Numbered from the stretch's first letter, positions 8,812 to 30,657 are shown. The stretch: 30,967 nucleotides of DNA from an uncultured virus (IMG/VR IMGVR_UViG_3300034196_000262) (IMGVR_UViG_3300034196_000262); one strand, 5' to 3'. Made by a program: numbers and translations. The notes: generated by a model from the letters alone, not told the origin.

Positions 8812-8840
8812 ATTATAACAAAAAATGGGGGATAGATCAA
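8812..8840 (-). promoter_or_regulatory. sigma70-type promoter for tilS
   Basis: TTGATC-17 nt-TATAAT with extended -10 TG. Confidence 0.7.
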
Positions 8841-9490
8841 TAAGTAATTGCGTCAACCATCCATGAATAGGTTTCAAAGTTGTTGATAAGATCTTCAATA
8901 TCATGAAAACCTTCATAAACTCTTGGACGGCGTTCAATATCATGAAACAACATTTTCTTAAAAGCAGTATCAGCATACTCTGGAGCTTTCAAGTCCAAAA
9001 TAGTACTTAATTTGAAAACAGATGGTCTATGGTAAAGCATACCATTCTTATCAACAGACAAGATAACCTCAAACTCAGGCACTTCTCTATTGCTCCATGC
9101 TCGTTGATGAAACATAAAGTATATTTTAAACATCTTAACTGTGGATAAAATATCAAAGTGTTCCATTAGTAACGAAATCATTGGATGATTTGATTCTTTA
9201 TTGAGATCATTGAAGTCAATTTCGTAATAGACTTCATTGTGATATTTTAGTACAGGCGTAGGCAATTCATGTTTTACGAGTTGATGCTTTTCATTAAAAT
9301 CACCCACCAAATAGATATGTTTATCTAAAAAATAGGACTCTGCACAATCTTCATAATAAAGATAGTCATCTTCTGTACAGCCATGAATCTCCAAATAACC
9401 CCAGTAGGAATCTTTTTCAATAAGCTGCTTTTCTACATTGTCATTATGCAGTTCCATTAGACTAATGTATTTACGATGACCCTTACCCAT
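8837..9490 (-). CDS. Hypothetical protein, variant member of the C-terminal-tag family
   Basis: AGGAG RBS; tail EDLINNFETYSWMVDAITY aligns without gaps to DDFINRFDDYKQVIEMSII of ORF 16853. Confidence 0.75.
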   Translation of the reverse strand: MGKGHRKYISLMELHNDNVEKQLIEKDSYWGYLEIHGCTEDDYLYYEDCAESYFLDKHIYLVGDFNEKHQLVKHELPTPVLKYHNEVYYEIDFNDLNKESNHPMISLLMEHFDILSTVKMFKIYFMFHQRAWSNREVPEFEVILSVDKNGMLYHRPSVFKLSTILDLKAPEYADTAFKKMLFHDIERRPRVYEGFHDIEDLINNFETYSWMVDAITY

Positions 9491-9507
9491 TTTTTAAATC
9501 TCCTAAA

Positions 9508-9536
9508 GAAAAACACCAAAGGGTATTGGTGTTTTC
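9508..9536 (-). terminator. Intrinsic terminator after hpf
   Basis: AAAACACCAA-AGGGTA-TTGGTGTTTT hairpin. Confidence 0.7.
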
Positions 9537-9557
9537 ATGAACTGAATTGCAGATTAA

Positions 9558-9881
9558 TTATTCTGCGAGTGCAATCTTTTGGTGTAGCTTGCCTTTTTGT
9601 TTCTCTTTGAGCTTTTTGAGCTTAATCAAAACTTTGTTTGTAGCGTCTGTAATAGAGTGATACATGTCTTCACTTGAACATGAAACCACAACGTCTTCGG
9701 TATTTGGAACCGACACTTTAAATTCAGCCACGAACTTAAATTTGTCTTTTTTAAGGAAGACATCGACTCGTGTGATTTTATCATGTTGATGTTGAATCTT
9801 GGCTAGATGACCATTGATGTGAGAGTGTAGAGCTTCGGTTACTTCGAAATCTGTAGAATGGATACTTTTAATCATAATCAA
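9558..9881 (-). CDS. hpf: Ribosome hibernation promoting factor (HPF/RaiA family, short form)
   Basis: FEVTEALHSHINGHLAKI, ITRVDVFL, SEDMYHSITDATNKVLIKLKKLKEK match the HPF pattern; AGGAG RBS (start may be 9875). Confidence 0.88.
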   Translation of the reverse strand: MIMIKSIHSTDFEVTEALHSHINGHLAKIQHQHDKITRVDVFLKKDKFKFVAEFKVSVPNTEDVVVSCSSEDMYHSITDATNKVLIKLKKLKEKQKGKLHQKIALAE

Positions 9882-9929
9882 CTCCTATAATTAAACTAAA
9901 ACAGATAAGATTGCCTCATCTGTTTTCGT

Positions 9930-9958
9930 ATCTTAACAGAGAAGAAGCAAAAAAGCAA
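9930..9958 (-). promoter_or_regulatory. sigma70-type promoter for hpf
   Basis: TTGCTT-17 nt-TAAGAT with extended -10 TG. Confidence 0.6.
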
Positions 9959-9972
9959 CCACTAAAAACAAG

Positions 9973-9993
9973 AAAAGCACCATTGAGGTGCTT
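9973..9993 (-). terminator. Intrinsic terminator after rpsU
   Basis: AAGCACC-ATTGA-GGTGCTT; T-rich tail on the minus strand. Confidence 0.7.
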
Positions 9994-10011
9994 ACTATTT
10001 AATCTTATTGT

Positions 10012-10197
10012 TTACTTATCTCTTTTATTGGCTCTTTTAATTGCTTCTTTCTTCCTTAGAACTTTTAGTTCTGTTTCAGGAATATAAAATTCATGTTTCT
10101 TATAATCTTGAATTATCTTAGCTTTGTCACAAGCTTTTTTAAATCTACGAAGAGCAAATTCAATTCTTTCGTTAGGTTTGAGTATTATTTTTGGCAT
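10012..10197 (-). CDS. rpsU: 30S ribosomal protein bS21 homologue
   Basis: MPKIILKPNERIEFALRRFKKACDKAKIIQDYKKHEFY.P matches the gammaproteobacterial S21 pattern (ALRRFKRSCEKAG...REFYEKP); basic C-terminus. Confidence 0.9.
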   Translation of the reverse strand: MPKIILKPNERIEFALRRFKKACDKAKIIQDYKKHEFYIPETELKVLRKKEAIKRANKRDK

Positions 10198-10396
10198 TTT
10201 GATATCCTATTCTTTTTCAAGTCCATTTATTATATTATACCATATCAATTAAAATATTATAAGTCAATAACAACAATTCTTATTTGTATATATTGAATAA
10301 CCTATCATTAGACGAATGGCTATTATTTCAATCCTATTTAATATAGATTTTTTAAGGCGTAACTGTTAAAATACCAAACCATTTAGGAGAAGAATA

Positions 10397-10783
10397 ATGA
10401 CTAAAATTACAGTAGAAAATTTGCTAGCTGAATTAAGTGCCAGTGAACTAAGTCCAAGAGACAAACAAAGAACAGTCAATATTGTGGTGGTCAATGAGGG
10501 GACTATGGGAGCCACACCTACTGTTAATGTTAAACAAGCCAGTTTTGGTTTTGATTGGGATTCCCAAATGTTTATGCTATTTCCAGAACAACCACTCACT
10601 ACACTAACCAGAGAAGAAATTGATGACATTTCTAAAAGTGTCCATGATACACAATCCTTTCATACACGCCAACTCCTTAAAGAGAACTATGAAAGAGAGA
10701 GGACATTAAGAGAATTTATCAAAAATCTTGATCAAAGTTCGATGACTACTGAACAAAAAGAATTCATTAGCCAATTAAGATAG
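10397..10783 (+). CDS. Hypothetical protein with GFDWD motif
   Basis: AGGAG RBS; 128 aa; followed by a terminator. Confidence 0.8.
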   Translation: MTKITVENLLAELSASELSPRDKQRTVNIVVVNEGTMGATPTVNVKQASFGFDWDSQMFMLFPEQPLTTLTREEIDDISKSVHDTQSFHTRQLLKENYERERTLREFIKNLDQSSMTTEQKEFISQLR

Positions 10784-10800
10784 TCTTAAACAGTAAAAAG

Positions 10801-10825
10801 AAAAGAGCTTTGATAGCTCTTTTTT
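10801..10825. terminator. Bidirectional intrinsic terminator
   Basis: AAAAGAGCT-TTGAT-AGCTCTTTT between convergent genes. Confidence 0.8.
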
Positions 10826-10840
10826 ATTTTTGTTCTCGTA

Positions 10841-11449
10841 TTAAGTCATTTTCAACATTTCAAATAATGTTAAATTAGCTTCTGTTAAATCTTCCATACT
10901 TTGAATATGAAGATCTTTGAAACAGGTTTTAACAAATTCTTTATTGCCTTTTAAGACTTCCATAATAATAAGATTCATCAAAGGTGTATCTTTATAATCT
11001 AATGTAATGTCAAAAATCTTTTCCATAAAGAAATGGTTAAAGAATTCGTTCAATTGATCGTTAAGTAAAATACTATCACTGTGGTCATACCAAAAATATT
11101 TGGAGTCTAATAAAGCTCCATTCACTGCATAATTATTCAAAGTCTTGGTAGGTTTACCATATGTATTTGCATTTTTATAGTAGATAAGGACAGGTTGTCC
11201 TGTAAACGAGTACGTTATCTGAGCAGGAAGGTCATATTCACTTTCTTTTCGGTCAGATGAGTTTTTGTTGAATTTTTTAATAATGCTGTTGGTGCCATCA
11301 TCATTCACAATAAAAGTAAAACTGTCATAAATGTAATGGATGTTAAAATGAGTTTGTAGAAAAGACACGATGCCATATTTTTCTATGTCTTCGGGTAATA
11401 GAACGGAGTAGCTTTCTGCGATAAAATATTCATAATCTTTTTTATTCAT
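10841..11449 (-). CDS. Hypothetical protein, C-terminal-tag family variant
   Basis: AGGTG RBS; tail EDLTEANLTLFEMLKMT is the tag plus one extra residue. Confidence 0.8.
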   Translation of the reverse strand: MNKKDYEYFIAESYSVLLPEDIEKYGIVSFLQTHFNIHYIYDSFTFIVNDDGTNSIIKKFNKNSSDRKESEYDLPAQITYSFTGQPVLIYYKNANTYGKPTKTLNNYAVNGALLDSKYFWYDHSDSILLNDQLNEFFNHFFMEKIFDITLDYKDTPLMNLIIMEVLKGNKEFVKTCFKDLHIQSMEDLTEANLTLFEMLKMT

Positions 11450-11538
11450 ATATCACCTATTGTTGTACCTATAATATACACACTAGCTGACTAAATCAAG
11501 ACATTAACTCCAAACGGTATCAAAACAGAAAATATAGT

Positions 11539-11826
11539 TTAGATTTTGGATAAAGATTCGCTCTCCATCAATTTTTTGACTATCTGCTTTACGACCAATA
11601 CAAAATCATCGTTTAAAATGTCTTTTACAATCAACTTATCAAAATAAATTTTGTCTAAATCAAGTAAAGCCGAAATATTAACCTCATTACCACTCAAATA
11701 ATATTTGAAATCCCATAGCAAACCCTTCGAATTCTCGAAGTCATCTAATCCAGAATAATCATCAAGATTTAATACGAATGCTTCACTCGTTTCGGCAATT
11801 TTAGCATAATTATCTAACATATTCAA
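11539..11826 (-). CDS. Small acidic hypothetical protein
   Basis: 95 aa ORF (start may be ATG 11820); shares a KGLL[WY]DF motif with ORF 1213-2703. Confidence 0.65.
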   Translation of the reverse strand: MNMLDNYAKIAETSEAFVLNLDDYSGLDDFENSKGLLWDFKYYLSGNEVNISALLDLDKIYFDKLIVKDILNDDFVLVVKQIVKKLMESESLSKI

Positions 11827-11953
11827 ATCATTGTTTTGTTATATCTTAACACCATTTTTATATAAATCAAGAAAAACCCTGTTTTCGTTGGATTTTATGA
11901 AAAATGAATGGAAAATTTGAACGTTTTCATCAATTAAAAATAAAAACACCAAC

Positions 11954-11984
11954 AAAAAAAGCCACTAGTCTTAACTGATGGCTT
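11954..11984 (-). terminator. Probable intrinsic terminator
   Basis: Imperfect AAGCCA...TGGCTT stem with a T7 tract on the minus strand, downstream of ORF 12007. Confidence 0.6.
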
Positions 11985-12006
11985 ATGATAATTATTGAAT
12001 ACTAGA

Positions 12007-12636
12007 TTATGGTTTAGAAACTTTAATAATTAACAATCTTATTTCATCCAAACTACTGACTGTTGAGAACACAGTGTATTCGTTTAAATTGACCCCGGTT
12101 GATTGTGTGAAAGTATTATCAGTACCAGATTTATTATAGGGTGCTGAGTGCTCGCCTGAACTGTCTACCATAATTTTACCTGTAATGCTAAATTGTACAG
12201 TATCGTTTTCAGAAGGGTATATTAATAGATCAATTTTGTAAGAATTTGATGATCTGTTTATTTTATAATCACCTGATTTCTTAGTTTCGTCAAGACTTAT
12301 TCTTGAGTAAGAATTGTTAAAACTAACATCTCGTTCAAGAGCAACATTATTAAATTTTAATATATTGTTTTCAATCAAGTTTCCTGTTGTTTTAAAAAAT
12401 TCATTTAATTCTAAGGCATTCTTTTTCGATTTTACATTGCTATCAATATCATCTAATGATGTCTTAATGTTATTAATCACCACTTCTTGTATTTCCACGT
12501 TAACGAAATTATTTTCAAATGGACTTGTGATACCGGGAATACCACGTTTAATTTCTGGAACATACGACTCGGCTGAAACGGACAATCCAGATAACATTAT
12601 TAAACACATTGGTAATACTTTTATATATCGGTTCAT
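12007..12636 (-). CDS. Secreted protein, possibly secretin-domain-like (paralog of 12661)
   Basis: Signal peptide; FVNVEIQEVVINN and FTQSTGVNLNEYTVFS..RLLIIKV shared with the neighbour; AGGAG RBS. Confidence 0.75.
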   Translation of the reverse strand: MNRYIKVLPMCLIMLSGLSVSAESYVPEIKRGIPGITSPFENNFVNVEIQEVVINNIKTSLDDIDSNVKSKKNALELNEFFKTTGNLIENNILKFNNVALERDVSFNNSYSRISLDETKKSGDYKINRSSNSYKIDLLIYPSENDTVQFSITGKIMVDSSGEHSAPYNKSGTDNTFTQSTGVNLNEYTVFSTVSSLDEIRLLIIKVSKP

Positions 12637-12660
12637 ATTCTCTCCTAAATACTCTTTATT

Positions 12661-13389
12661 TTATTGCTGCACTATATTTGATTCAGTTATTTTAACAATA
12701 AAAAATCTATTTTCACGAGTCTTATTGTCAACACCTGATGATTTGACATCATGAGAAATAATAGCGTATTCATTTAACTTAATTGCTGATGTTTGTTTGA
12801 AAATATTATGAACTTTAGTTTTCTCCATATCATTGTCAATTAAAGGCGTCCCAGAAGTTACCACATGATCTGTGTCGGATATACCATTGAAAGTCATTTG
12901 AATAGAATCACCCATTAATCTTTTTAAACCTACATTAAAAAAGTAAGCATTAGAGCTTTCAACATTATTGTATGTAAGGCCAGCTTCATTTTTTTTGTTT
13001 GATTGTGTGTTAGTTTTAACAAGATGACTTTTGATATATGAATTCTGAAACAAGGTGTCTTGATCATTAGGCACGCCATTAAAGTTAAAAGTGGTTGATG
13101 ATTGAACAATCCCTAGTGTTTGAAGATATTTGTCTAATTCTACTGAAGTTTTTATCTGTTTGACAATCTCATCTATATTATCGAAAGATTTGTCTACATT
13201 GTTGATAATGACTTCATGTATTTCTAGGTTAACAAAAGCATTTTTATTATAAATAGCTACTGTGTTTCTTAATCTATCCATATCATATGACAATTGTTTC
13301 TTTTCTTTGATTTCTTGAACAGTATCAGCCAAAACAGCACAAGAAAAAATGGCTAAACAAAGTGGTAATAACTTTAAATATCCTTTCAT
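12661..13389 (-). CDS. Secreted protein, possibly secretin-domain-like (paralog of 12007)
   Basis: Signal peptide; FVNLEIHEVIINN and FKQTSAIKLNEYAIIS..RFFIVKI; AGGAG RBS. Confidence 0.75.
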   Translation of the reverse strand: MKGYLKLLPLCLAIFSCAVLADTVQEIKEKKQLSYDMDRLRNTVAIYNKNAFVNLEIHEVIINNVDKSFDNIDEIVKQIKTSVELDKYLQTLGIVQSSTTFNFNGVPNDQDTLFQNSYIKSHLVKTNTQSNKKNEAGLTYNNVESSNAYFFNVGLKRLMGDSIQMTFNGISDTDHVVTSGTPLIDNDMEKTKVHNIFKQTSAIKLNEYAIISHDVKSSGVDNKTRENRFFIVKITESNIVQQ

Positions 13390-13476
13390 AAATATAACTC
13401 CTATTTTTAATATCTTAATAAGTTATCACCATAGAAATTATTGTCAAATTATATGCATGAATGCATATAATATAGG

Positions 13477-13502
13477 AACAAAAAAGAGGCCGAAGCCCCT
13501 TT
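13477..13502 (-). terminator. UUCG-loop intrinsic terminator, copy 1 of an exact 26-bp repeat
   Basis: Minus strand reads AAAGGGGC-TTCG-GCCTCTTTTTTGTT. Confidence 0.88.
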
Positions 13503-13505
13503 ATT

Positions 13506-13763
13506 TTACCAAGATACATACAGTGGGATTTCATCACCATATTCGATGGCTAATTTTTCTTTGATGAGCTTAATATCATTGTCATCACTTTCTTCTGGTC
13601 TAGTATCAAAGGTAATAAAGCTTCCATTATCTGGTTCATATGCATCCACAAACCAATGCCATAAATCCATAAACGTGACTTCAAGATTATATTTCTCTTC
13701 AATATAGTCAAATAATGACATAAGGTCAAAATATTCTTTTTTTGCTGCAATTGGCTTTTCCAT
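13506..13763 (-). CDS. Small acidic hypothetical protein
   Basis: 85 aa; GAGG RBS; start overlaps the upstream stop. Confidence 0.75.
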   Translation of the reverse strand: MEKPIAAKKEYFDLMSLFDYIEEKYNLEVTFMDLWHWFVDAYEPDNGSFITFDTRPEESDDNDIKLIKEKLAIEYGDEIPLYVSW

Positions 13764-14254
13764 TAATACGTCCTCTTATAGTTTCTATCGTATGGCCCAA
13801 GGTTGTGTGGTTTTTCTTCAAAACTCTTTGTTGCGTCTACTAAACGTTGTTCAAAGACAACTTTTAAATCATCATCCAGTTCTATGTCATTCTTGTTATT
13901 TTTTATAATATTAAGTACTGCCTGATCAACTAAACTGTTATTATTAATAGACTCAGGATCTTTGTAATCGAATGGTGGCGTTATCTTCATCACAACACCC
14001 AATTCAGCCAGTGAGTGACCAATCATGTTAAAATCTAATGCAGCCATAACGGTAACATATTTGATTTCATTTCTCTCTAAAACATCAAGAATTCGTCTGG
14101 CTGATATGGGATTACAACTCACACCCATTAAAATATCCAGAAAGCGTTTGTAATCTGTTGGCACACCTTCAAAAGATAAGCCAACGCCCATATATTCTGG
14201 ATAGTCCCATTCACCTTGATAGAAATCTTCAAATTTAAGTCGTCTACTCATCAT
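13763..14254 (-). CDS. Hypothetical protein with IGHSL motif
   Basis: Likely starts in the ATGATGATG run (14257/14254/14251) after GGGGG rather than at 14317. Confidence 0.7.
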   Translation of the reverse strand: MMSRRLKFEDFYQGEWDYPEYMGVGLSFEGVPTDYKRFLDILMGVSCNPISARRILDVLERNEIKYVTVMAALDFNMIGHSLAELGVVMKITPPFDYKDPESINNNSLVDQAVLNIIKNNKNDIELDDDLKVVFEQRLVDATKSFEEKPHNLGPYDRNYKRTY

Positions 14255-14642
14255 CATACCCCCATACTTTAACATTGACATTAACCTGTCCCAACGAATG
14301 TCCAATATGGTTTCCACCTAAAGTAATAATATCAGCAAATTTGAAATCGGATATTGTTTTAATTTCTGACCGTCGATTTCTTAAATTATTTTGTATGGTT
14401 GCGTTCAAAAGAATATCTTGAAAACCCATACAATGCTCTGATTCTTGCATAGTAAGCAAATTAGTTTTTAAAAAATAAACCATATCTTCGAAGTTGAGCG
14501 GTAGCTGTATTTCGGCTGCTTGATATCCGTGTATACCATCAAAGCCAATACACAAAGCTGATGATGGAAATCTACTGTTATCTTCTTCAACATAAAACAA
14601 TATCATTTCTTTTTGAAATCTATTTATTTCTTTTTGAAACAT
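14244..14642 (-). CDS. Hypothetical protein, paralog of 14646
   Basis: Shares QKEM..FYV.E, IGFDG, FE.MV.FLKT..LT, DFKFAD and G.SLGQ with the neighbour. Confidence 0.8.
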   Translation of the reverse strand: MFQKEINRFQKEMILFYVEEDNSRFPSSALCIGFDGIHGYQAAEIQLPLNFEDMVYFLKTNLLTMQESEHCMGFQDILLNATIQNNLRNRRSEIKTISDFKFADIITLGGNHIGHSLGQVNVNVKVWGYDDE

Positions 14643-14645
14643 AAG

Positions 14646-15002
14646 TCAACCCTCAATAATATTGACTAATAACTGACCTAGAGAATATCCGAAATTTCCC
14701 ATACCTAAGTAAGCAAGATCCGCAAATTTAAAATCAGTAATTGCCTTAATGTTCTTATCGTCCCCTTTCGCACATTGCATAATGACATCAAAAAAGAACA
14801 TAGTGCTATCAGACTGAGTTAAAGTTAGGGTTCCAGTTTTTAAAAATTCAACCATTGCTTCAAATGTTTTTGGTGTTTCAGGCATTTTATGATTATAAGA
14901 TTCATTTCCATCAAAACCAATAAAATAAGCAAAAGGAGTACCCATTCTGCCTGAATCGTGTTCTTCTGGGACATAAAAAATCATCATTTCTTTTTGAATC
15001 AT
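14646..15002 (-). CDS. Hypothetical protein, paralog of 14244
   Basis: GAGGTG RBS before ATG 15002; same shared motifs as 14244. Confidence 0.8.
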   Translation of the reverse strand: MIQKEMMIFYVPEEHDSGRMGTPFAYFIGFDGNESYNHKMPETPKTFEAMVEFLKTGTLTLTQSDSTMFFFDVIMQCAKGDDKNIKAITDFKFADLAYLGMGNFGYSLGQLLVNIIEG

Positions 15003-15054
15003 AGCCACCTCTCAAATCAATCGCGTTAGCATACCAGAACATTTTTAAAATATC

Positions 15055-15080
15055 AACAAAAAAGAGGCCGAAGCCCCTTT
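15055..15080 (-). terminator. UUCG-loop intrinsic terminator after nadE, copy 2 of the exact 26-bp repeat
   Basis: Identical to 13477-13502. Confidence 0.88.
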
Positions 15081-15095
15081 TGTTTACTTTTAAAA

Positions 15096-16769
15096 TCAAT
15101 ACTGAACAGCGACAATAGGGATTTGGCGACCGACACCAAACGATCTGTATTGCACACGAATGATAGGTGGTGCTTGATGACGTTTGAATTCTGAGTTGTG
15201 AACCAAACGAACTACCTTATCAATAACTTCTTGCTTAACATCTTTCAACAGAGCAAGCTCTTCAAGACGTTCTTTCTCATCCAAATAATCATGTTCAATA
15301 TAAAGACGCAAGATGGCATCAAGAACAGGGTATGGTGGAAGTGAGTCGGTATCCACTTGACCCGGAGACAACTCCGCAGAAGGCTCTTTCACAATAATGG
15401 TTTCTGGAATAAGTTCCACCCCATGCAATTCGTTGTAGTAACGAGACAGTGCATACACTTGCATTTTATACAAGTCACCGATCAAGTTCAAACCACCGTT
15501 AGTATCGCCATACAATGTGCAGAAACCGACTGACAGTTCTGACTTGTTACCTGTTGAAAGAACGATAGCACCTGTGTTGTTAGAGTATTCCATCAAGATA
15601 CGACCACGAATACGTGATTGAATGTTTTCGATGGTGATTTTTTTAGGTTCTTCACCAAAACTCTTTTTAAACTCTTCAACCGTTACATCAAAATCTCGAC
15701 CGATTGGGCGGGTATACAGTTTCACACCCAAGTTATTGCACAGGATAACTGAGTCATCCACACTACCACTTGATGAGTAATGCGACGGCATAGTAATTGC
15801 TTTAACGTTTTCAGCCCCAAGAGCATCCACAGCAAGAGCTAGTGTCAAAGCACTATCAATACCGCCAGATGAACCAACCACGACGCTGGTAAAGCCACAC
15901 TTGCCGATATAGTCACGAAGACCCATCACAGTTTGCTTATAGAAGAGTTCATTGGCTGTTGGAAACTTGCTGATCTTGTGTTGTGAAATATATTCAAGGT
16001 TATCCATTTCAACTACGGAGACTTGTTCAGCAAAGAATTCAAGATGACCACTGAGAATACCTTTACTGTTCATGATAAAACTAGCCCCATCAAAAACAAT
16101 TTGGTCATTAGCACCGACTTGGTTCACATACACAAAGGGCACTTTCAAAATTTCTGAAACGGCTTTTGAAAAGACTTCAAGACGGTCTTCTGCTTTATTG
16201 ATGTTACTTGGAGAAGCGTTAATACTCACAACGAATTCCGGGTTCTGTGCTTTAAGAGCCTTAACTGGGGAAGCGTTATACATCTTATTAGGTGCAGAGT
16301 CATCCCAACCATCTTCACAGATAAGAACACCCACACGATGACCATTCAAGTTAAAGACCATAGGCTGATCTGCACTACCTTCTTCAAAGTAACGTTTTTC
16401 ATCAAAGATGTTGTAAGTAGGCAGCAATTGTTTGCGGTAGTTGAAAATTTGCTCGCCTTTACTGAACACAGCAAGGGAGTTAAAGAAACGTTTGCCTGTT
16501 TCTGCAGAGTTACGTTCGATATAACCAATCATGATAGGAGTTTTAGCAGATTTAGAAAGTTTTTTCACTTTATCGAAATAAACGTCCTGCATTTCCATGA
16601 ACTTGTCATTAAGGATAAGGTCACGGGGAAAATAACCGCTGAGGCAGAGTTCTGTGAATGCTACCATCTCAACTTTTGCTTTCTTTTCAAGAACAGCGTG
16701 TTCAATTTTGGCATAGTTGCCAGCAAAATCACCAATTTTATAGTTGAGTTGAGCGATTGCAATTTTCAT
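15096..16769 (-). CDS. nadE: Glutamine-dependent NAD+ synthetase
   Basis: Nitrilase domain with E-K-C triad (FTEL, YRKQLLP, ICED); synthetase domain SGGIDS, ENIQSRIRG, TGNKSE, TLYGD, PSAEL..GQ.D.DSLPPY, SEFKRHQAPP. Confidence 0.96.
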   Translation of the reverse strand: MKIAIAQLNYKIGDFAGNYAKIEHAVLEKKAKVEMVAFTELCLSGYFPRDLILNDKFMEMQDVYFDKVKKLSKSAKTPIMIGYIERNSAETGKRFFNSLAVFSKGEQIFNYRKQLLPTYNIFDEKRYFEEGSADQPMVFNLNGHRVGVLICEDGWDDSAPNKMYNASPVKALKAQNPEFVVSINASPSNINKAEDRLEVFSKAVSEILKVPFVYVNQVGANDQIVFDGASFIMNSKGILSGHLEFFAEQVSVVEMDNLEYISQHKISKFPTANELFYKQTVMGLRDYIGKCGFTSVVVGSSGGIDSALTLALAVDALGAENVKAITMPSHYSSSGSVDDSVILCNNLGVKLYTRPIGRDFDVTVEEFKKSFGEEPKKITIENIQSRIRGRILMEYSNNTGAIVLSTGNKSELSVGFCTLYGDTNGGLNLIGDLYKMQVYALSRYYNELHGVELIPETIIVKEPSAELSPGQVDTDSLPPYPVLDAILRLYIEHDYLDEKERLEELALLKDVKQEVIDKVVRLVHNSEFKRHQAPPIIRVQYRSFGVGRQIPIVAVQY

Positions 16770-17701: not shown

Positions 17702-17716
17702 ATTTAAATCCTCAGT

Positions 17717-20936: not shown

Positions 20937-21353
20937 TCAATAAAACATCCAAATAGTGCCTAAATTCTTAAATATCTTTTGAACTGCAGTATCTTCAAAC
21001 AAAAGACCGGGAATACGCTTGACATCAGAAACAATAATATTTCCCCATTTATCATAGACCACACCAGTTTCAAAATACTCAGGTCGTTTAGGATCGGTAA
21101 TGTTAGCCGCCGCATAAACAGCCTCAACAGTAATCAAAGTCTTTTCACATTCGATGTGATGTGATTCACAAACACTGGCAGCGTTATTTAAGTAATATCC
21201 GCCATCATCAAATAATTTTCGTTCGATGATATGGTGACTATCAACAGATGGTTTGTCACAAAATATACAGGTGTGATTATCTCTTTCAAAACAGGCTGTT
21301 TTAAAATCTTCTCTGCTGAGTAATGTGTTTCCATCTAATTTTTTCTGTTTCAT
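20937..21353 (-). CDS. HNH endonuclease-like protein
   Basis: FERDNHTCIFC, DSHHII, N...VCESHH; AGGTG RBS before ATG 21353. Confidence 0.8.
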   Translation of the reverse strand: MKQKKLDGNTLLSREDFKTACFERDNHTCIFCDKPSVDSHHIIERKLFDDGGYYLNNAASVCESHHIECEKTLITVEAVYAAANITDPKRPEYFETGVVYDKWGNIIVSDVKRIPGLLFEDTAVQKIFKNLGTIWMFY

Positions 21354-21368
21354 CTTTATCACCTAAAT

Positions 21369-22937: not shown

Positions 22938-22952
22938 ATAATTAACTTAAAA

Positions 22953-23507
22953 TTAATTGTGAACAGTTGCTTTACTAATATTGATACAACTATCAACGAT
23001 TTCCCAGCATTCTTCTTTTGTTAACTGTTTACTGAATGGACAGACTGTTTCTGCGTTTTTCTCTTTAATTACCGAAGCATTTTCAAGAACTACGGCCCCA
23101 CGATACAAACGTGTAATGGCAAAGTCTGTTGATATCCTATGAAACTCATGACTTAACGATGTATAGCTGTCACCTTTTCTAAAATGTTGAACACTCTCTG
23201 GAATAACAATCACATTCACTTTTTGTGGTTTTACTATTTTTTCTTGTTTGCAATTTTCTTCAACCATAATGTAATCACCAAGACCCGAATGTATAGTAAA
23301 CAACTCTTGTGTGATTTTTCCCGCCATGATAGTTGAAATAAAGTCATATCTATGATTATGAATTTCTTCTACGTTGACTATGGGATTAACGTCTGGGTGA
23401 TAGAAATGCATTCTTAAATTATTGTCTAATTTTAGCTGGACAAAACCCAAACCAAAGAAATGTATCATTTGATGGTTTTTTCTTAAAAAATCGGTATCTA
23501 AATACAT
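22953..23507 (-). CDS. Cupin-fold (metal-binding double-stranded beta-helix) protein
   Basis: RMHFYHP..IHNHRYDFISTIMAG and GDSY....HEFHRI match cupin motifs 1 and 2. Confidence 0.65.
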   Translation of the reverse strand: MYLDTDFLRKNHQMIHFFGLGFVQLKLDNNLRMHFYHPDVNPIVNVEEIHNHRYDFISTIMAGKITQELFTIHSGLGDYIMVEENCKQEKIVKPQKVNVIVIPESVQHFRKGDSYTSLSHEFHRISTDFAITRLYRGAVVLENASVIKEKNAETVCPFSKQLTKEECWEIVDSCINISKATVHN

Positions 23508-23585
23508 ATCTTCACCTTTATTTGTTTATCCTATTATATAATAAGATTGATTTAATTCAATGACATCTAAAAAAGAAAGTTTTTC

Positions 23586-24266
23586 TTAAATAGTAAGCAT
23601 TTTCAACAAGAAAAGCTGTTCAGAAAACTCATGGGATGGAAGTGTAAAATCTACATCCATTACATCTCCTACATTGTAATAATTGGCTAAATCTTTTAAT
23701 GAATTAACAAGAAATTCCTTCTTTTTTACTTTGATTTTGCCATCAACAAAACGACACAGAATATCAACTTTACCAAGGAACTTGTCACCAGATTGAAAAT
23801 GAACTGTTAGTTTTATATTATCATCTGCTAATTTTGGTGAAAATAATTTATTCATAATTGAAATATTATAGGCTTTGTCAAAATAAAATTTTGTTTCTAT
23901 AAAAAGATGGACATCTGTATTATACAATGAATAGAATGCGATTAGATTGTTAAAATATAGATCCAAATTCATATCAAATTTGCTAAAATTTGTTATATTT
24001 TGTAATTCTGTCGAGTAATGTCGATGAACGACGTGGAAAAGTTCATAAGTTGGTCCATTACTCTTAACAAAAAAAACACCATTCTCTATATCATCATCAG
24101 TCACAGCAGAATTTGAGATAATTCTCGATAATGTTACATTGGCTGAATAAATGTTATTCATACCATTTTTTATGCTAGGTTTTAAAGAATTGATAGACTT
24201 CTTGGACAAATACATATTTTTATACATACTTTTAATTTTCTTATCAAGCGTTTTTTTATCGGTCAT
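23586..24266 (-). CDS. Hypothetical protein, C-terminal-tag family; paralog of 24300
   Basis: Ends LLKMLTI; shares VH.HY, KFDM.LDLY.NN and NKLF.PK.A.DNIK with 24300. Confidence 0.85.
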   Translation of the reverse strand: MTDKKTLDKKIKSMYKNMYLSKKSINSLKPSIKNGMNNIYSANVTLSRIISNSAVTDDDIENGVFFVKSNGPTYELFHVVHRHYSTELQNITNFSKFDMNLDLYFNNLIAFYSLYNTDVHLFIETKFYFDKAYNISIMNKLFSPKLADDNIKLTVHFQSGDKFLGKVDILCRFVDGKIKVKKKEFLVNSLKDLANYYNVGDVMDVDFTLPSHEFSEQLFLLKMLTI

Positions 24267-24299
24267 AGTTTTTAATCCTACTATTATAAGTTCATATTT

Positions 24300-24950
24300 T
24301 TAAATAGTTGCCATATGCAACAATAGGATACTTTGTTTAAAATCAGCTTCTGTTTGTGTGTAATCTAAATTAATTTCATCCGGTATGTTAAATCGTTCTT
24401 TAAAGTTATTGGTAATGTTCTCAAAAAAAGGATGAACATCTTTTTTATTTTGTATAATTATAACACCATTAACACACTCACAGGATAAATAAAAATCTCC
24501 TGCTATTAGGTATTGGTTAAAATGGAGTTCTAATTCTATCTTGATGTTGTCATTAGCGACTTTTGGTGGAAACAACTTATTAAGTAGCCAGCTATTTGAA
24601 ATACGATCTAAATACAACCTTGTATCTACAAAAAAATAAAAATGGTCGCTATACACTGAACAGAGGTTTAAAATGTTATTCATATACAAATCTAAATCCA
24701 TGTCAAATTTTTGAAAACTGACATGATTGGTATTCGGTGTTGCGTAATGGTGATGAACAAATTTAAACATCGAATCGGTTTCATTTTCTTTTTTATAAAA
24801 AATAATACGGTCTTCTTCCTCGGTGGTTCTATTGTAGTTATCCATATCAGATAGCTTTGCCTTACTTGAGTAAATAGCATTTAAAGACTTTAAAAAAAGT
24901 GGCATTAAATCATCCAATGTTTCAGGAGATATTACAGGCTTTATAGTCAT
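24300..24950 (-). CDS. Hypothetical protein, C-terminal-tag family; paralog of 23586
   Basis: Ends LLHMATI; GGAG RBS before ATG 24950. Confidence 0.85.
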   Translation of the reverse strand: MTIKPVISPETLDDLMPLFLKSLNAIYSSKAKLSDMDNYNRTTEEEDRIIFYKKENETDSMFKFVHHHYATPNTNHVSFQKFDMDLDLYMNNILNLCSVYSDHFYFFVDTRLYLDRISNSWLLNKLFPPKVANDNIKIELELHFNQYLIAGDFYLSCECVNGVIIIQNKKDVHPFFENITNNFKERFNIPDEINLDYTQTEADFKQSILLLHMATI

Positions 24951-24971
24951 AATTTGAAACTCCAAGAATAA

Positions 24972-25652: not shown

Positions 25653-26341
25653 TGATCTTCCTTTTTATTATCGTCTGTAGTAAGTTTCCAAAAATATTCC
25701 GGCGTCTCACCTTCTGGCAGTGTCACATATTTGCTAATAAAACCAGCTTTCATTTCTTCAAAGTTGGCATACTGGTCATGCCCAATGAAATATCTAAATT
25801 TAAAAAAGAAGGTTTTCGTTTCAATATTTAACATAGGGTCTACAATTATCATGATTTTATTTTCATGCACATCATCAACGATAACAGTTCTAAGAAAATA
25901 GTTATCACCATCATAATACATCGAATCAATCATATCTTCCAAGGTTTCTGGTTTAGTTGAAATAATCTCAACACCCAAAAAGGTTTTATAAAGATCACTT
26001 AACTCTTCATACTGCTGGCGTATTGCGACCAGAAAAGAATCGGACATCGTTGAAAAATTATTCATATAATTAATAATGCTATACGGGTCGTAATAAATAA
26101 GATTAAACTCATCAGGTGATTCATTCTCGTCCAATTCAGCAGAACGCATCAAATTATAATAGTCTTCCGTAATTTCACCATCCTTACTCAGATTAAAATA
26201 AATTTCGTACAGATGTTCGTTAGGACACCTTACACTTTCCAAAACAATATCTTTACCCATCGCATTAACATTATATTCAAGTGCAGTTAAAACTTTTTTG
26301 AAAAGTTCTTCCGGTATGTTATTTAATTTTATATCATTCAT
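25649..26341 (-). CDS. Acidic hypothetical protein, paralog of 24972 lacking the final tag
   Basis: YYDGDNY; ends KLTTDDNKKEDQ; ATGA-coupled on both sides. Confidence 0.8.
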   Translation of the reverse strand: MNDIKLNNIPEELFKKVLTALEYNVNAMGKDIVLESVRCPNEHLYEIYFNLSKDGEITEDYYNLMRSAELDENESPDEFNLIYYDPYSIINYMNNFSTMSDSFLVAIRQQYEELSDLYKTFLGVEIISTKPETLEDMIDSMYYDGDNYFLRTVIVDDVHENKIMIIVDPMLNIETKTFFFKFRYFIGHDQYANFEEMKAGFISKYVTLPEGETPEYFWKLTTDDNKKEDQ

Positions 26342-27009
26342 ATTTTCACCATTGCTAATAGAGTATGATCTCTTAAAGTTAAGTCTTCTAATTTTTTATT
26401 AAGTGGCTCACAAGCATAGGCTACTAACAAATGGTTAATAACTTCTTCCGGTGTTCCTGAGTATAAGTTTCCATCAATTCTTGAATTTACAAAAAAATGC
26501 GGTTCAAATTTTGTGAAATCATCATTAAGCATAAACCTAACAATAATTTTGCTATCCAAGCAATGGGTAGGCATAAATGGTTTAAGTTCTTTTGAGAATT
26601 TAAGAATGTCATTGGGTGTGTTAATTTTAAAATCAACTGAATTATAATTATTGCTTGTTACATATTGCCTATCATCAAACAAAAAGTAATTAACAAATTT
26701 CAGTTGATTAGTAATGACTTCGATTTGGTTCAATATTTGTCTATCGAGATCACCCTTTACACCAATATTGAATACGCGGTCAGCCCGTTTAATTTTTGAT
26801 TTGTCATCAAAAAAAAGAACTAGTTTCTCTCCTTCAATAACAAGAATCATTTTCATATCCATATCTATGTAAAAACCTTTGAACATCAATTGAATGTTAT
26901 GGTTAGACGTTCTCACTGGAGATACTGTCAATTCATAATTTTCTTTATCATAAACAAGTCGTTCTCTTAGCACCTGCATATAATAATTTCTTTGATATTC
27001 CGAACTCAT
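26338..27009 (-). CDS. Hypothetical protein, C-terminal-tag family
   Basis: Ends EDLTLRDHTLLAMVKI; GAGG RBS. Confidence 0.8.
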   Translation of the reverse strand: MSSEYQRNYYMQVLRERLVYDKENYELTVSPVRTSNHNIQLMFKGFYIDMDMKMILVIEGEKLVLFFDDKSKIKRADRVFNIGVKGDLDRQILNQIEVITNQLKFVNYFLFDDRQYVTSNNYNSVDFKINTPNDILKFSKELKPFMPTHCLDSKIIVRFMLNDDFTKFEPHFFVNSRIDGNLYSGTPEEVINHLLVAYACEPLNKKLEDLTLRDHTLLAMVKI

Positions 27010-27032
27010 TCATAATTCCTCATTTGGTCGAT

Positions 27033-27061
27033 ATTATACCACAACCATAGAGAAACATCAA
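27033..27061 (-). promoter_or_regulatory. sigma70-type promoter heading the 27009-to-23586 operon
   Basis: TTGATG-17 nt-TATAAT with extended -10 TG. Confidence 0.7.
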
Positions 27062-27069
27062 TCAATTGC

Positions 27070-27606
27070 TTAACTTCGTGTAATCCTATGAAGAATATCT
27101 TCTGCAGTATAGAGTTTCATCTCTGAATCATAAGAAACGTTAATCCTTTTAATATCTACCTGACTATGCAGCTTGCCACCATGCAAATGAACTGACCCAC
27201 GAATACCAGACATACCGGGCCATTCAAGCATAGGATAGTGCATTAATACAACTTTCTGTTTAAGAAACATGATTTCTTTGTATTGAGATACACTCTCAAT
27301 GCCTAAATTCTTGTCTGTCATCATTTGCTCAAAGGTATCCATATGATCTTCTGAACTTAACACAAAGTGTTTATGTCCATTGAGTTCATACACAAGGTTC
27401 ATGTAAGATTGAAGAGCACCTTTTGCAATAGAACAAAACCCACCTAGAATATAAACAGTATCATCTGGTTTTACTTGGTTATTCCACTGGGTAATAATAC
27501 TCTCTTCCATTGCTTCTACATTATCGAAACCACGGGCAATCGCCACGTCTTTATTTCTGAAATGAAGATTAGCTGTAAAATGAATGTCTTTCAGTTTTTG
27601 AATCAT
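27070..27606 (-). CDS. Calcineurin-like metallophosphoesterase homologue with degenerate active site
   Basis: Scaffold IHFTANLHF..RGF..VEAMEE.II..WN..VKPDDTVYILGGF..LNG.K..HYP..W..HLHG is typical of small phage phosphoesterases. Confidence 0.8.
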   Translation of the reverse strand: MIQKLKDIHFTANLHFRNKDVAIARGFDNVEAMEESIITQWNNQVKPDDTVYILGGFCSIAKGALQSYMNLVYELNGHKHFVLSSEDHMDTFEQMMTDKNLGIESVSQYKEIMFLKQKVVLMHYPMLEWPGMSGIRGSVHLHGGKLHSQVDIKRINVSYDSEMKLYTAEDILHRITRS

Positions 27607-27778
27607 TTATGATCTCCAAAATGTTTCTTATTATACCATTTCTTGTAAGTTGTGTATAGTTCTATCTGTTATGCTAAAGGTTAAAAAGCTACTGTTTACA
27701 ACATAAAGAGTAACTATTTTTTAATATCATGTTGAAATAAAAAAATAACAATGCTATGATGTAGAAAAAGGAGGCTCT

Positions 27779-28093
27779 ATGTCGAATACTAAAGTTCTGC
27801 TGGAAACAATGGAAGTAAGATACGGAAAAGGGTTCGTGAGAGAATTAAAAGAGTCTTGCGAATTAACAGATGATGACTACGAAAATGTCATCCTTATATT
27901 TAGAGCTGCAATCTATTCCTTGGACAAATATTGCCGAGTGAAAGAGTCTACTTTAAAAGCACTTCGTGTGTTCAACCCAGAACTTCAAGGTGTAAGAATT
28001 AGTGATGATAGCGAAGTTCTTATTGGCGACAGTTATTTTCATAAAGTAAGAAATGAAATTGATGCCATGAAACAAATCGTTCAAAATCTATAA
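27779..28093 (+). CDS. Hypothetical protein
   Basis: AGGAGG RBS; 104 aa; terminator follows. Confidence 0.75.
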   Translation: MSNTKVLLETMEVRYGKGFVRELKESCELTDDDYENVILIFRAAIYSLDKYCRVKESTLKALRVFNPELQGVRISDDSEVLIGDSYFHKVRNEIDAMKQIVQNL

Positions 28094-28109
28094 TTATTTC
28101 ATACTCGTC

Positions 28110-28135
28110 AAAGACCACCACTTGGTGGTTTTTTT
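28110..28135 (+). terminator. Intrinsic terminator
   Basis: ACCACCA-CT-TGGTGGT followed by a T run. Confidence 0.8.
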
Positions 28136-28172
28136 GTTTGTGGTATACTATAATAAAAATAAAGAGATTTAG

Positions 28173-29084
28173 ATGAAAGTATTATTGTTGCAACATTTCG
28201 AAAGCTACTGGGAAGGTCCATTACGAGATCTTCATAACACTAATTTTGAAGAATGTATGAGCAAAGTCTTAGATTTCGTGGCATCAACCGAAGAACTTGA
28301 TAAAATCATCATCACACTTTTCGAAGATTATGAACTCAATCATGAGTATGAACTACTTGAATCCATGTGCAAAAATAAAGGAATACAACTCGATGTGCAT
28401 ACTTATGGATATGCATGGTATCGAGATCCTAATGACGAAGATAATGGCTATCCAGAAGAAACTAGAAATATTGATTGGTGTCAAGGCACTCGTGACTATC
28501 ACGGGGAAGAAGATGTGATTGAAATAACTGAATGGCAAAAAGAACTAAAAGCTCAGGAATCTAAGGTTTTAGTAGGTGGAGCATTCGATGGTGAGTGTGT
28601 CAGCGACGTTATTGCTGCACTCGATACATTAGAAATTGATTACGAAAGAGTAGAAGGATTAATAGTTGGTTCTGGTCATGATTATGAATTTGTTTTAGGT
28701 TCAGCGTCTGATATTCATGGAAGCATGATGTGTTTGATGTCTGACATGGCTGAGAAATATGATGAGTTGTTATCTGATTGTGATGACGATGAAGATTTGC
28801 TTGAAGAAGAATGTTTAGATGAAATGATTGAAATTGAAAAGTTATTAAATGATTTTGTTTCTGAAAACAGGACGATTATAGAAGCTTATGAATTAGAGTT
28901 CATTTCTGGAAATGAAGTGATTGATGAGATGGTTTACGATAACATTAAACATGGCACAGCGGCCAGTAGGTATTCAGACATAGCGGATGAAAAAAATCTA
29001 GCAGCGATCAAATCAAAATTGAAAGCTACTGATGAATCCCCTGTTGTTGAAAAACCGAAATCAAGAAATAAACTAACTGCATAG
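28173..29084 (+). CDS. Acidic protein with a possible isochorismatase/cysteine-hydrolase-like N-terminal domain
   Basis: ORF is solid. The fold guess rests on MKVLLLQHFE, KIIITL and VLVGGAFDGECVSDVIAAL and is tentative. Confidence 0.55.
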   Translation: MKVLLLQHFESYWEGPLRDLHNTNFEECMSKVLDFVASTEELDKIIITLFEDYELNHEYELLESMCKNKGIQLDVHTYGYAWYRDPNDEDNGYPEETRNIDWCQGTRDYHGEEDVIEITEWQKELKAQESKVLVGGAFDGECVSDVIAALDTLEIDYERVEGLIVGSGHDYEFVLGSASDIHGSMMCLMSDMAEKYDELLSDCDDDEDLLEEECLDEMIEIEKLLNDFVSENRTIIEAYELEFISGNEVIDEMVYDNIKHGTAASRYSDIADEKNLAAIKSKLKATDESPVVEKPKSRNKLTA

Positions 29085-29091
29085 CAAAATC

Positions 29092-29114
29092 AAACAACCT
29101 CCGGGTTGTTTTTT
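29092..29114 (+). terminator. Intrinsic terminator
   Basis: AAACAACC-TCCG-GGTTGTTT followed by Ts. Confidence 0.8.
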
Positions 29115-29205
29115 ATTTATTGAATTTTTTCTTATCTTTTGATATACTGAAAACTCGTTAAAACCATGTTAACATAGGTGAAAACGCTACGAGTGAGGTT
29201 GATTG

Positions 29206-29991
29206 ATGTATTCTATTAAAACTGATTTTAAAAAAGACGCTCTGACAGTTAATGAGTTAGATAAGACAAAATTAATAGAAGTGTCTATTGATGTGGCTAA
29301 ACATGTCTGTAAAGTTGATATCAATGCCTATGAATTTGAATCCGAAGCTAGACTAAGCGTTTTTGATAAGCTGAATGGAAACCTATATTCTATCATGATT
29401 TATGCAAAGAGTCCCTTTAATGAATTGTGTTTCACGTACTCTTTTAAATATGATTCTAACAATAAATTATTGCTTAACAGTAGCGATGTCTTTTTTTCTG
29501 ATTGGGCCTTGTATAATGATTTACCATTAAAAGACACATACCCTGATTCAATTTATATTAATTTCTATGATGATTTTAAAATTGATTCATACGAAGTCAG
29601 TTATCGTAGTATTATTCGTCATTATATCTACGAAAATGAAGAATATGACACGACATCGGTTGTCGATTTTAATTATACACTTAAAGACGAAACAATAACC
29701 TTAAATATGGAGTATAATTACTGGGAACAGAAAACAAACCCAGAAAATTATTTTAGCTTAACAAAACTTAATGTTAACGAAGCTCAATTAGCACAGGATA
29801 AGATGTTTATTAATCTGTTGAATTATATTGAAATGGGGAGTGTTGCAATGACGGACCTATTTGATTACATGGTTACTCAAAAAGTAAAAACAGCCGAAGG
29901 ATTTAAAGCTGCTTATGAGTACTTTACAAACATTGAAGATAAAGAAATGATTAAAAATAAAATATCAGTTATAAAAATGGAAAATATTTAA
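29206..29991 (+). CDS. Hypothetical protein, C-terminal-tag family (plus strand)
   Basis: GAGGT RBS; ends ISVIKMENI. Confidence 0.8.
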   Translation: MYSIKTDFKKDALTVNELDKTKLIEVSIDVAKHVCKVDINAYEFESEARLSVFDKLNGNLYSIMIYAKSPFNELCFTYSFKYDSNNKLLLNSSDVFFSDWALYNDLPLKDTYPDSIYINFYDDFKIDSYEVSYRSIIRHYIYENEEYDTTSVVDFNYTLKDETITLNMEYNYWEQKTNPENYFSLTKLNVNEAQLAQDKMFINLLNYIEMGSVAMTDLFDYMVTQKVKTAEGFKAAYEYFTNIEDKEMIKNKISVIKMENI

Positions 29992-30012
29992 AAGTAGACA
30001 AACGCTAATTTT

Positions 30013-30657
30013 TTAAATTTCAACCATATTCAATAATTCAAAGTATCGATCAACATTATCATAGGTGATCTCATCACAAATGGATAAGTTACCCTTTTCA
30101 TAGAACCTCTGCTGCAGGTAAATAACGCAAAATTCATAATTATGAAGCGTTTTAAAGGTCTTATGTATTAAGTTTTGATTGTGATATCCAAAATAGGTGT
30201 AAATGGGTGTACTATTGGTATCACTTTGAACTTTTATGAATAAATAGGCACCCTTGATATCATGAGTGCAGGTTGACCATTGTTCATATAGATCATTTTC
30301 TTTTGTAAAGTAAAACATGTGCTCAATGACATAGTTTACATGAAGATTAAATTTAGCAGCAATCAGATCTTTTTGGTCATGAATAGGTTCGAATTTTTCT
30401 CTTAAATCACTTTCAATGTCATGTTTAAAGATAAATCCATTCATTTTCATTGTATCAAAGAAATCTCTATTATCTTTAACTGTCATTTTGATAATAAACA
30501 CCCACCGTTCAGGTTCTTCAATAATCGACATGGTTAAATAAGGCACATTAAACACGATGTTAGTCGTATCCGTAGAGAGTTTTTTATATTGACTGTGATT
30601 GAGTTCAGCAGTCTGTTCAAACAATGTCGAACTGACAATATTACAGAGTTCATTCAT
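30013..30657 (-). CDS. Hypothetical protein, C-terminal-tag family
   Basis: Ends DRYFELLNMVEI; start 30657 or a nearby in-frame ATG. Confidence 0.8.
   Translation of the reverse strand: MNELCNIVSSTLFEQTAELNHSQYKKLSTDTTNIVFNVPYLTMSIIEEPERWVFIIKMTVKDNRDFFDTMKMNGFIFKHDIESDLREKFEPIHDQKDLIAAKFNLHVNYVIEHMFYFTKENDLYEQWSTCTHDIKGAYLFIKVQSDTNSTPIYTYFGYHNQNLIHKTFKTLHNYEFCVIYLQQRFYEKGNLSICDEITYDNVDRYFELLNMVEI

Follow-up and report, generated by a model that had tools for sequence, protein, structure and literature searches.

The stretch IMGVR_UViG_3300034196_000262, catalogued in IMG/VR as part of an uncultured virus, comprises 30,967 nucleotides of DNA (hereafter the window) and carries a large set of genes whose products end in one and the same C-terminal heptad. 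The heptad, [LV]xxMxx[ILV] followed directly by the stop codon, closes 12 of 45 non-overlapping open reading frames (ORFs), which were retained from 68 ORFs of at least 60 amino acids (aa) after 23 shadow or overlapping frames had been discarded. We judge the chances to be about even that this tail is a docking or sorting peptide for a common partner, carried by a fast-evolving multigene family. ORFs are named below by their lower coordinate, and tail positions are counted back from the stop codon.

The statistics of the motif are beyond doubt. The same pattern occurs nine times in 8,873 internal positions, from which 0.046 terminal matches would be expected (binomial P 3.3e-26), and in 20,000 composition shuffles the terminal matches averaged 0.051 and never exceeded three. 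In a six-frame control without gene calling, 12 of the 397 stop-to-stop frames of at least 30 codons matched, and these were exactly the same 12 ORFs. A preliminary description of the window had quoted 12 heptads and proposed comparison with shuffled termini; all 12 are located at ORF ends, and the enrichment it anticipated (12/45 against the shuffled mean) is borne out. The two variants it reported, LFEMLKM with an additional Thr (10841) and MVDAITY (8837), are as described. Its opposite-strand tag, VIKMENI, is real but had been given a wrong coordinate: 29206 lies at the start of the ORF, and the tail ends at 29988 on the plus strand.

The heptad runs hydrophobic, hydrophobic, any residue, Met, mostly hydrophobic, any residue, and Ile, Leu or Val at the carboxy terminus. 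Met is found at −4 in 12 of 12 window tails, whereas positions −7, −6, −3 and −1 interchange among Leu, Ile, Val and Phe. Position −1 is Ile, Leu or Val in all 12, and −3 is hydrophobic (Val, Leu, Met, Ile or Ala) in nine. In 12 of the 14 window tails Met stands at a constant distance from the stop codon, while 0 to 16 residues separate the heptad from an aligned Asp column (alignment A3). Asp and Glu make up a fraction of 0.23 of positions −20 to −8 in the 12 tagged proteins, compared with 0.14 in 27 untagged ones; Asp accounts for most of the acidic residues before the heptad, without a clear EExxE block. An N-cap box, [STN]xx[DE], lies ahead of the tail in 10 of the 12 tagged proteins, but about one per two tails is expected by chance, and no claim is made from it because the pattern is too loose. 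The codons used for Leu, Val and Ile in the tail vary, the stop codons include TAA, TAG and TGA, and the sequences that follow the stops are unrelated to one another. Since the codons differ, the conservation is at the protein level, in agreement with the preliminary description. No DNA repeats were found at the ends of the tagged genes, which ruled out integron-like or repeat-borne cassettes. A T4-type prohead protease site (L/I-x-E) was also ruled out, Glu being present at −5 in just four of the 12 tails.

The 14 tagged or variant ORFs were grouped into 11 families (F1 to F11) by BLAST and phmmer. No family was assigned to the tagged proteins in Pfam, NCBIfam, PHROGs or PADLOC, the sole exception being a sub-threshold Pfam hit on 22295. 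To judge by sequence, the motif and the families appear to be new to these four libraries, the literature not having been searched for the heptad itself; the earlier statement that no described system was recognisable is upheld to this extent. Among the window ORFs, none of the enzymes recognised by Pfam carries the tail. Proteins with a hydrophobic N-terminus are likewise untagged, with an N-terminal hydropathy of at least 2.19 compared with at most 1.02 in the tagged proteins, so that both exclusions noted at the outset are correct. No N-terminal signal or membrane segment was found in the tagged proteins, and any export would therefore need a non-Sec route.

The tail is conserved in relatives. 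Two metagenomic loci, L081 and L082, with NadE proteins 92% and 91% identical to that of the window, were recovered by a metagenome scan with NadE; they are syntenic with the window and contain the same array. In L081, seven tails are strict and one has Ile at −7; in L082, five are strict, a sixth has Ile at −7 and two more are off-register variants. The F1 family (that of 16853) has 42 distinct members in the databases, with Met at −4 in 41 and Ile at −1 in 39. The F2 superfamily (that of 26338) has 23 representatives at E ≤0.001 among 1.84 billion cluster representatives; Met is at −4 in 28 of its 31 distinct sequences, and one distant member lies on a 1.54 Mb contig. Overall, about 70 database homologues retain the tail. 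The variant family F9 has five members across three genomes (the window, L081 and L082). A 97-aa ORF at 5139–5432 (minus strand) ends in DDIVDAVEV, resembling the Met-less tail of F9 (WMVDAITY).

The bodies of the tagged proteins evolve fast. Ten tagged genes with counterparts in L081 or L082 share 30–70% identity with them, as against 91–92% for NadE, 83–85% for TilS, 90–93% for the ribosome hibernation factor HPF, 85–90% for the HNH gene and 88–92% for ORF 22953, all of them neighbours. An untagged paralogue within the array, 25649, is 49–50% identical in the two loci, and the variant-tail genes are slower (83–87% for 10841 and 71–72% for 8837). Copy number also changes: F4 is present once in L081 and twice in the window, L082 has three F1 genes, and a contig of run X10 joins position 23573 to 24298, skipping the F4 copy 23586. 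An IS607-like pair, consisting of a serine recombinase with a MerR-type helix-turn-helix and a TnpB-like ORF, is found inside the array of L082 (2115–3930), and a TnpB-like ORF with a Cas12f1-like TNB domain is found at the edge of L081 (5–1069).

The untagged gene 25649 bears directly on what the tail is for. Its product aligns with F3 up to the helix preceding the tail, including a shared YDGDN block, and then ends without a tail; the tail is also absent from its orthologues, and thus from all three genomes. Since this conserved tail-less paralogue keeps the F3 body, the fold does not appear to need the tail, which would be dispensable to judge by the sequences of 25649 and its two orthologues. 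The gene stands between two tagged genes, 26338 and 24972, with a 4-bp overlap at each junction, and the first of these overlaps (26338/25649) is conserved in L081 and L082. Such start–stop overlaps suggest coupled translation.

Paralogy is evident at short range within the array, where BLAST and phmmer link the adjacent or nearby pairs 16853/20130, 23586/24300, 24972/25649 and 17717/26338. Beyond these pairs, little was detected in the bodies. With the last 40 residues cut, hhalign comparison of 17 family profiles (11 tagged and six controls; 136 pairs) gave a best probability of 8.2%, for a pair involving a control, and the best pair of tagged families reached 3.0%. A deep F2 profile (31 sequences) aligned with the F3 body at 32.5% probability (E 4.7e-4, 106 collinear columns), and the same F2 profile reached only 0.3% with a deep F1 profile (42 sequences). 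When the last 60 residues were compared, the probability was 95.5% for F2/F3 and 20.8% for F1/F9, with both alignments in register, and 15.8% for a control pair.

The AlphaFold2 (AF2) models of F1 (mean pLDDT 76.7, pTM 0.77) and of F2 26338 (mean pLDDT 75.2, pTM 0.72; mean pLDDT only 44–45 in two of the five models) tell more. The F1 model consists of helix 16–32, strands 39–43, 50–55, 58–64 and 76–82, helices 84–88 and 92–112, strands between 140 and 232, helix 240–255 and tail helices within 263–281. The F2 model consists of helix 3–17, strands 25–31, 39–45, 51–59 and 62–67, helices 70–80 and 87–111, strands between 116 and 185, helix 187–203 and a tail helix at 214–221. Given this shared order of elements, the two families, at the least, are probably paralogues of ancient origin, with a sequence similarity that is no longer detectable. 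The top-50 VIA lists of the two models have five PDB entries in common (7emf_Q, 7ui9_n, 4akr_C, 2ciu_A and 9d2f_a; Z 3.9–5.7). Foldseek found no match at E ≤0.001 for the F1 model in the PDB or for either model in BFVD, an ESM Atlas search with 26338 gave no usable match, and tblastn of 16853 against phages gave none. A Chou-Fasman-type prediction for the other nine families was discarded, its Q3 being just 0.46–0.47 against the AF2 models. The early claim that the bodies are unrelated thus stands at the level of sequence, with the exception of F2 and F3, and is weakened by the models of F1 and F2.

On the interpretation that we favour, the tagged ORFs would be lineage-restricted, fast-evolving, soluble alpha+beta proteins, mostly encoded in one tandem array. 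Separate acquisition of a tag by independent cargo proteins is improbable; at least some of the tagged proteins would be ancient paralogues. The address or docking helix of the preliminary description remains the best reading of the tail, but its companion idea, a constant helix on unconnected cargo domains, probably does not hold. The constant element would be a short helix at the C-terminus, ending exactly three residues past the invariant Met and with a mildly acidic stretch before it. One common partner would read this tail together with the free C-terminus, and the variable bodies would supply specificity, under diversifying or relaxed pressure. Both the binding of a partner and its identity are matters that we infer.

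The leading candidate for the partner, put forward tentatively and with considerable doubt, is a machine for export or translocation, akin to type IVB or type I systems, by which C-terminal signals are read without being cleaved. It leads because the tagged proteins have no Sec signals, evolve as exported or conflict proteins do, and have a mildly acidic stretch before a hydrophobic end. Type I secretion is similar in that its substrates lack an N-terminal signal and carry one at the C-terminus that is not cleaved, and some type I substrates have an extreme C-terminal acidic residue followed by hydrophobic residues. It differs in that the window has no ABC transporter, membrane fusion protein or TolC, and the tagged proteins have no RTX repeats; to our knowledge, a conserved Met is not a feature of type I signals. 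The Dot/Icm system also has an uncleaved signal in the last 20–30 residues of many unrelated or fast-evolving Sec-less proteins (PMC5802825). There is a loose likeness, too, in the acidic stretch about 10–20 residues from the end and the hydrophobic residues near it, the Dot/Icm signal being read by a coupling complex, with Glu-rich C-terminal signals (the ‘E-block’) bound by DotM (PMC5802825). Among the 45 ORFs of the window, which spans only 31 kb, Pfam found no type IV secretion system family.

Several observations weigh against a docking or sorting role, or against the export guess attached to it. The genes interspersed in the array resemble jumbo-phage genes rather than a pathogenicity island. 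Type IVB signals, including those of Dot/Icm, and type I signals are compositional and loose and are not known to end in a fixed heptad, whereas the heptad described here is fixed, its Met is invariant and it is predicted to form a helix. Five of its seven positions are hydrophobic, which would suit a buried helix. The tail helix is modelled with fair confidence (pLDDT about 81–83 in F1 and 69–81 in F2), and it may therefore simply pack on the body. The common order of elements in the F1 and F2 models, the two families modelled out of 11, belongs here as well. Within families, moreover, the last 20 residues generally appear no better conserved than the body: they ranked 2/204 in F2 and 13/198 in F9, but 81/263 in F1, 169/207 in F3, 307/343 in F7 and 183/183 in F8.

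These points lead to a different explanation, which we regard as rather unlikely: the tagged proteins form one divergent superfamily, and the last helix is no address but the structural element of tandem paralogues that drifts most slowly. The two models agree with this, each comprising a helix, four strands, a short helix, a long helix, a beta-meander, a helix of 16–17 residues and the tail helix, as do the five PDB entries on both VIA lists (Z 3.9–5.7) and the pLDDT of about 70–83 over the tail helix. So do the connection of F2 with F3 in body and tail, the in-register tails of F1 and F9, and the tandem arrangement with its adjacent paralogue pairs. The preliminary description had named a single divergent fold as the outcome that would count against an address; a common order of elements, which goes part of the way towards it, was found in two of the 11 families, and two of the five F2 models have a mean pLDDT of only 44–45. 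Against a purely structural helix stand the tail-less paralogue kept in three genomes, a stop position that stays constant although the length of the helix varies, and the Met, which is invariant where core positions usually interchange. A position serving packing alone would be expected to interchange as its neighbours in the heptad do. Because of the tail-less paralogue, the fixed distance from Met to stop behind a preceding helix of variable length, and the invariant Met, it is unlikely that the tail serves only as a helix of the core. Many of the tagged proteins are nevertheless probably ancient paralogues with bodies that have drifted beyond sequence recognition, and the shared tail may partly reflect this common ancestry.

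A docking function could also be served entirely within the cytoplasm, with the tail tethering its proteins to an AAA+ protease, unfoldase, chaperone or modifying enzyme, either as an adaptor handle, in line with the F-box-like role named in the preliminary description, or as a C-terminal degron; we consider this quite improbable. A strict motif at the extreme C-terminus with a constant end is what the tail has, and such motifs are typical of recognition peptides such as the ssrA tag, the ClpX-binding tail of SspB and class II PDZ ligands, which are likewise strict and in register with the free carboxy terminus. The hydrophobic residues at −1 (12 of 12) and −3 (nine of 12), together with the constant stop register, fit the PDZ class II or degron pattern, as a pattern match only, and fast-evolving bodies are as expected of target-binding modules in conflict. 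However, no window gene is recognised by Pfam as a protease, an adaptor, or a PDZ or TPR protein. The tail is also predicted to be helical, unlike PDZ ligands, which bind in extended form. It further differs from ssrA, SspB and PDZ peptides in having at least seven constrained positions and in occurring on a dozen paralogous or unrelated proteins of one array.

Very unlikely, in our estimate, is a loading peptide for a capsid-like, encapsulin-like or phage-derived particle used in storage or co-delivery. Short terminal helices do load unrelated cargo into encapsulins and bacterial microcompartments, where a terminal peptide or helix behind a variable linker docks otherwise unrelated proteins to one shell. 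The conserved genes interspersed in the array best match jumbo phages of 235–485 kb, and a phage-type phosphoesterase and a PNK-like kinase are present. No capsid, portal, terminase, encapsulin or microcompartment shell gene was found, however, in the 45 ORFs searched with Pfam or the 37 searched with PHROGs, and BFVD contains no significant match to either model. In Caulobacter phage C1, the plus-strand ORFs of at least 100 aa in the homologous region all lack such a tail. The tail is also unlike the encapsulin consensus as we know it, and encapsulin and microcompartment cargo consists of recognisable enzymes, whereas the bodies here belong to no known family, the motif is another one, and the window has no shell gene.

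The tails might, finally, be an oligomerisation handle that pairs them with one another or with the untagged paralogue into mixed assemblies, which we think highly improbable. The overlapping triad of 26338, 25649 and 24972, suggestive of coupled translation, and the broad hydrophobic face of the tail helix speak for this, but it leaves the constant C-terminal end unexplained. A complex prediction for 26338 with its untagged neighbour 25649 scored 0.01 (‘no answer’), which is not evidence either way. The array as a whole resembles the fast-evolving tandem gene families of bacteria, for instance arrays of divergent immunity-type proteins, in its same-strand genes, adjacent paralogue pairs, copy-number change and identity far below that of neighbouring genes. 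It differs from them in that Pfam, NCBIfam and PADLOC revealed no toxin and no known immunity family, and we know of no immunity-type array with a common C-terminal heptad.

The setting of these genes is not that of a recognisable phage, although the interspersed conserved genes are jumbo-phage-like. The same proteins also occur on contigs of 1,917,244, 1,859,102 and 1,843,594 bases, and the presence of identical proteins on contigs of 1.84–1.92 Mb implies a replicon of about 1.9 Mb. This is over twice 841 kb, the size of the largest among the phage genomes listed. No close relative of the locus was found in IMG/VR, where an F1 scan of viral contigs was empty and NadE reached at most 41% identity. 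The phage frame adopted by the preliminary description is unsupported, given these contigs and the lack of a close IMG/VR relative. The window has a G+C content of about 31%, most of its starts are preceded by AGGAG-type Shine-Dalgarno sites, and Pfam matches, some of them weak, were obtained for only about eight of the 45 ORFs. No tRNA genes or Rfam families were found in the window, L081 or L082. The genes for S21, HPF, TilS and NadE each stand isolated among family-less ORFs, yet the contigs are 1.84–1.92 Mb long and use Shine-Dalgarno sites. The replicon may belong to a reduced, host-associated bacterium or to something stranger.

Its taxonomic placement is weak, given the similarities of TilS and S21. 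The closest solved structure to TilS is that of E. coli TilS (2.6e-55), and its ESM Atlas neighbours are mostly from Pseudomonadota. The nearest solved structures to S21 are S21 chains of bacterial ribosomes, which we take to be gammaproteobacterial, and S21 is only about 40% identical to S21 genes in phage-labelled records. The uncultured source organism is thus weakly suggested to be Pseudomonadota-like. A NadE search of genome contigs recovered relatives of only 37–51% identity, and TilS was only 29% identical in the two genomes that gave matches. No F1 match was present in 401 sampled genomes from the class of one NadE locus, and an F1 alignment scan of metagenomes found nothing. Peat metagenomes contain near-identical DNA, as do runs assigned to three coded organism labels; run X10 has two array contigs (890 and 2,252 bases) without any difference from the window. 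Occurrence in organism-labelled runs agrees with a life spent with or inside other organisms, without proving it. No RNA runs are listed among those carrying DNA of the locus, and the two runs with a small share of it are RNA only by guess.

The coordinates of the tagged and neighbouring genes are collected in Table 1. For 24300, translation probably begins not at the listed TTG but five codons further downstream, at an ATG that has no clear Shine-Dalgarno motif upstream of it. Among the phages matched by the phrog_4784 gene at 22953–23507, the best are those of Caulobacter and Brevundimonas, of about 300–327 kb among the matches listed. No structural PHROG was matched by the 37 window proteins searched. 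PADLOC detected no defence family on the 14 tagged or variant proteins; its single weak match among the 34 proteins searched overall was to PbeA (E 0.0008), elsewhere in the window.

Table 1. Location of array genes and their neighbours in the window.
Feature	Coordinates	Strand	C-terminal tail	Remarks
F1, 282 aa	16853..17701	-	VIEMSII	AF2 model; Met at −4 in 41/42 distinct members
F2, 218 aa	17717..18373	-	VVQMVNL	phmmer to 26338 3.6e-5, last 25 aa removed
F7, 362 aa	19033..20121	-	LFEMMEI	L081 orthologue 52% identical, ends VINMLHI
F1 paralogue, 265 aa	20130..20927	-	LVEMTVI	phmmer to 16853 1e-39
F6, 282 aa	21369..22217	-	LHEMIHI	orthologues 43-48% identical, tail kept
F5, 179 aa	22295..22834	-	LNDMVKI	orthologues 48-51% identical, tail kept
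F4, 226 aa	23586..24266	-	LLKMLTI	paralogue of 24300 (6e-31)
F4, 221 aa as listed	24300..24965	-	LLHMATI	
F3, 226 aa	24972..25652	-	VLQMLNV	tail-region hhalign to F2 95.5%
Untagged F3 paralogue, 230 aa	25649..26341	-		phmmer to 24972 3.2e-7
F2, 223 aa	26338..27009	-	LLAMVKI	AF2 model; Met at −4 in 28/31 distinct superfamily members
F10, 262 aa	29203..29991	+	VIKMENI	tail ends 29988, stop 29989-29991
F11, 214 aa	30013..30657	-	LLNMVEI	
F8, variant tail	10841..11449	-	LFEMLKM+T (one extra residue)	orthologues end LFEILKMN, LFEMIKMV
F9, variant tail	8837..9490	-	WMVDAITY	F1-type 21-residue tail, Ala replaces Met
Endonuclease I	418-1161			Pfam
PNK-like kinase	4670-5089	-		PHROGs
TilS	7624-8781			Pfam
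Short ribosome hibernation factor HPF	9558-9881			Pfam
Ribosomal protein S21	10012-10197			Pfam
Glutamine-dependent NAD synthetase NadE	15096-16769			Pfam
HNH-domain gene	20937-21362	-		phrog_24030 1.7e-44; tblastn ≤50% identity, E 1e-35, phages 235-485 kb
phrog_4784 gene	22953-23507	-		tblastn best 33% identity, E 4e-20
Phage-type phosphoesterase	27070-27606	-		phrog_547

Other features of the window lie outside the tagged set. A 303-aa protein encoded at 28173–29084 (plus strand) has a net charge of −48, no family match and no counterpart in L081 or L082; it is extremely acidic, as DNA-mimic proteins are. A 42-nt direct repeat (13468–13509 and 15046–15087, 88% identical) flanks the block 13506–15008; the repeat includes a G+C-rich hairpin followed by a T run and is terminator-like. 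An X10 contig joins 13503 to 15053, its shorter side being only 27 letters long. Adjacent untagged paralogues are found at 12007–12636 and 12661–13389 (4e-17), with signal peptides, and at 14244–14642 and 14646–15008 (2e-16). The N-terminus of a 496-aa protein (1213–2703, minus strand) resembles a 95-aa ORF (11539–11826, minus strand) at 7e-5, neither having a family match.

That many proteins can share a short terminal address is already known. In Sec, Tat, sortase and type IX secretion and in encapsulins, such peptides let a machine's clients be compiled from sequence alone. It is possible, though we would not count on it, that the heptad is a new C-terminal address of this sort, a capped helix with Met-x-x-Ile that delivers at least eight sequence-unrelated families to one machine, which could act in secretion into a host, in particle loading or in hand-over to an unfoldase. 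If so, every client of that machine could be recognised directly in genome sequences by the motif, and a strict new motif would give such a handle for an uncultured lineage with almost no annotation. Should the tail instead be a structural relic, it would be a clean case of paralogues past profile detection that keep one helix, and a test case for remote homology. The tail marks the fastest-evolving genes of the locus, those likeliest to face a host, a rival or a virus.

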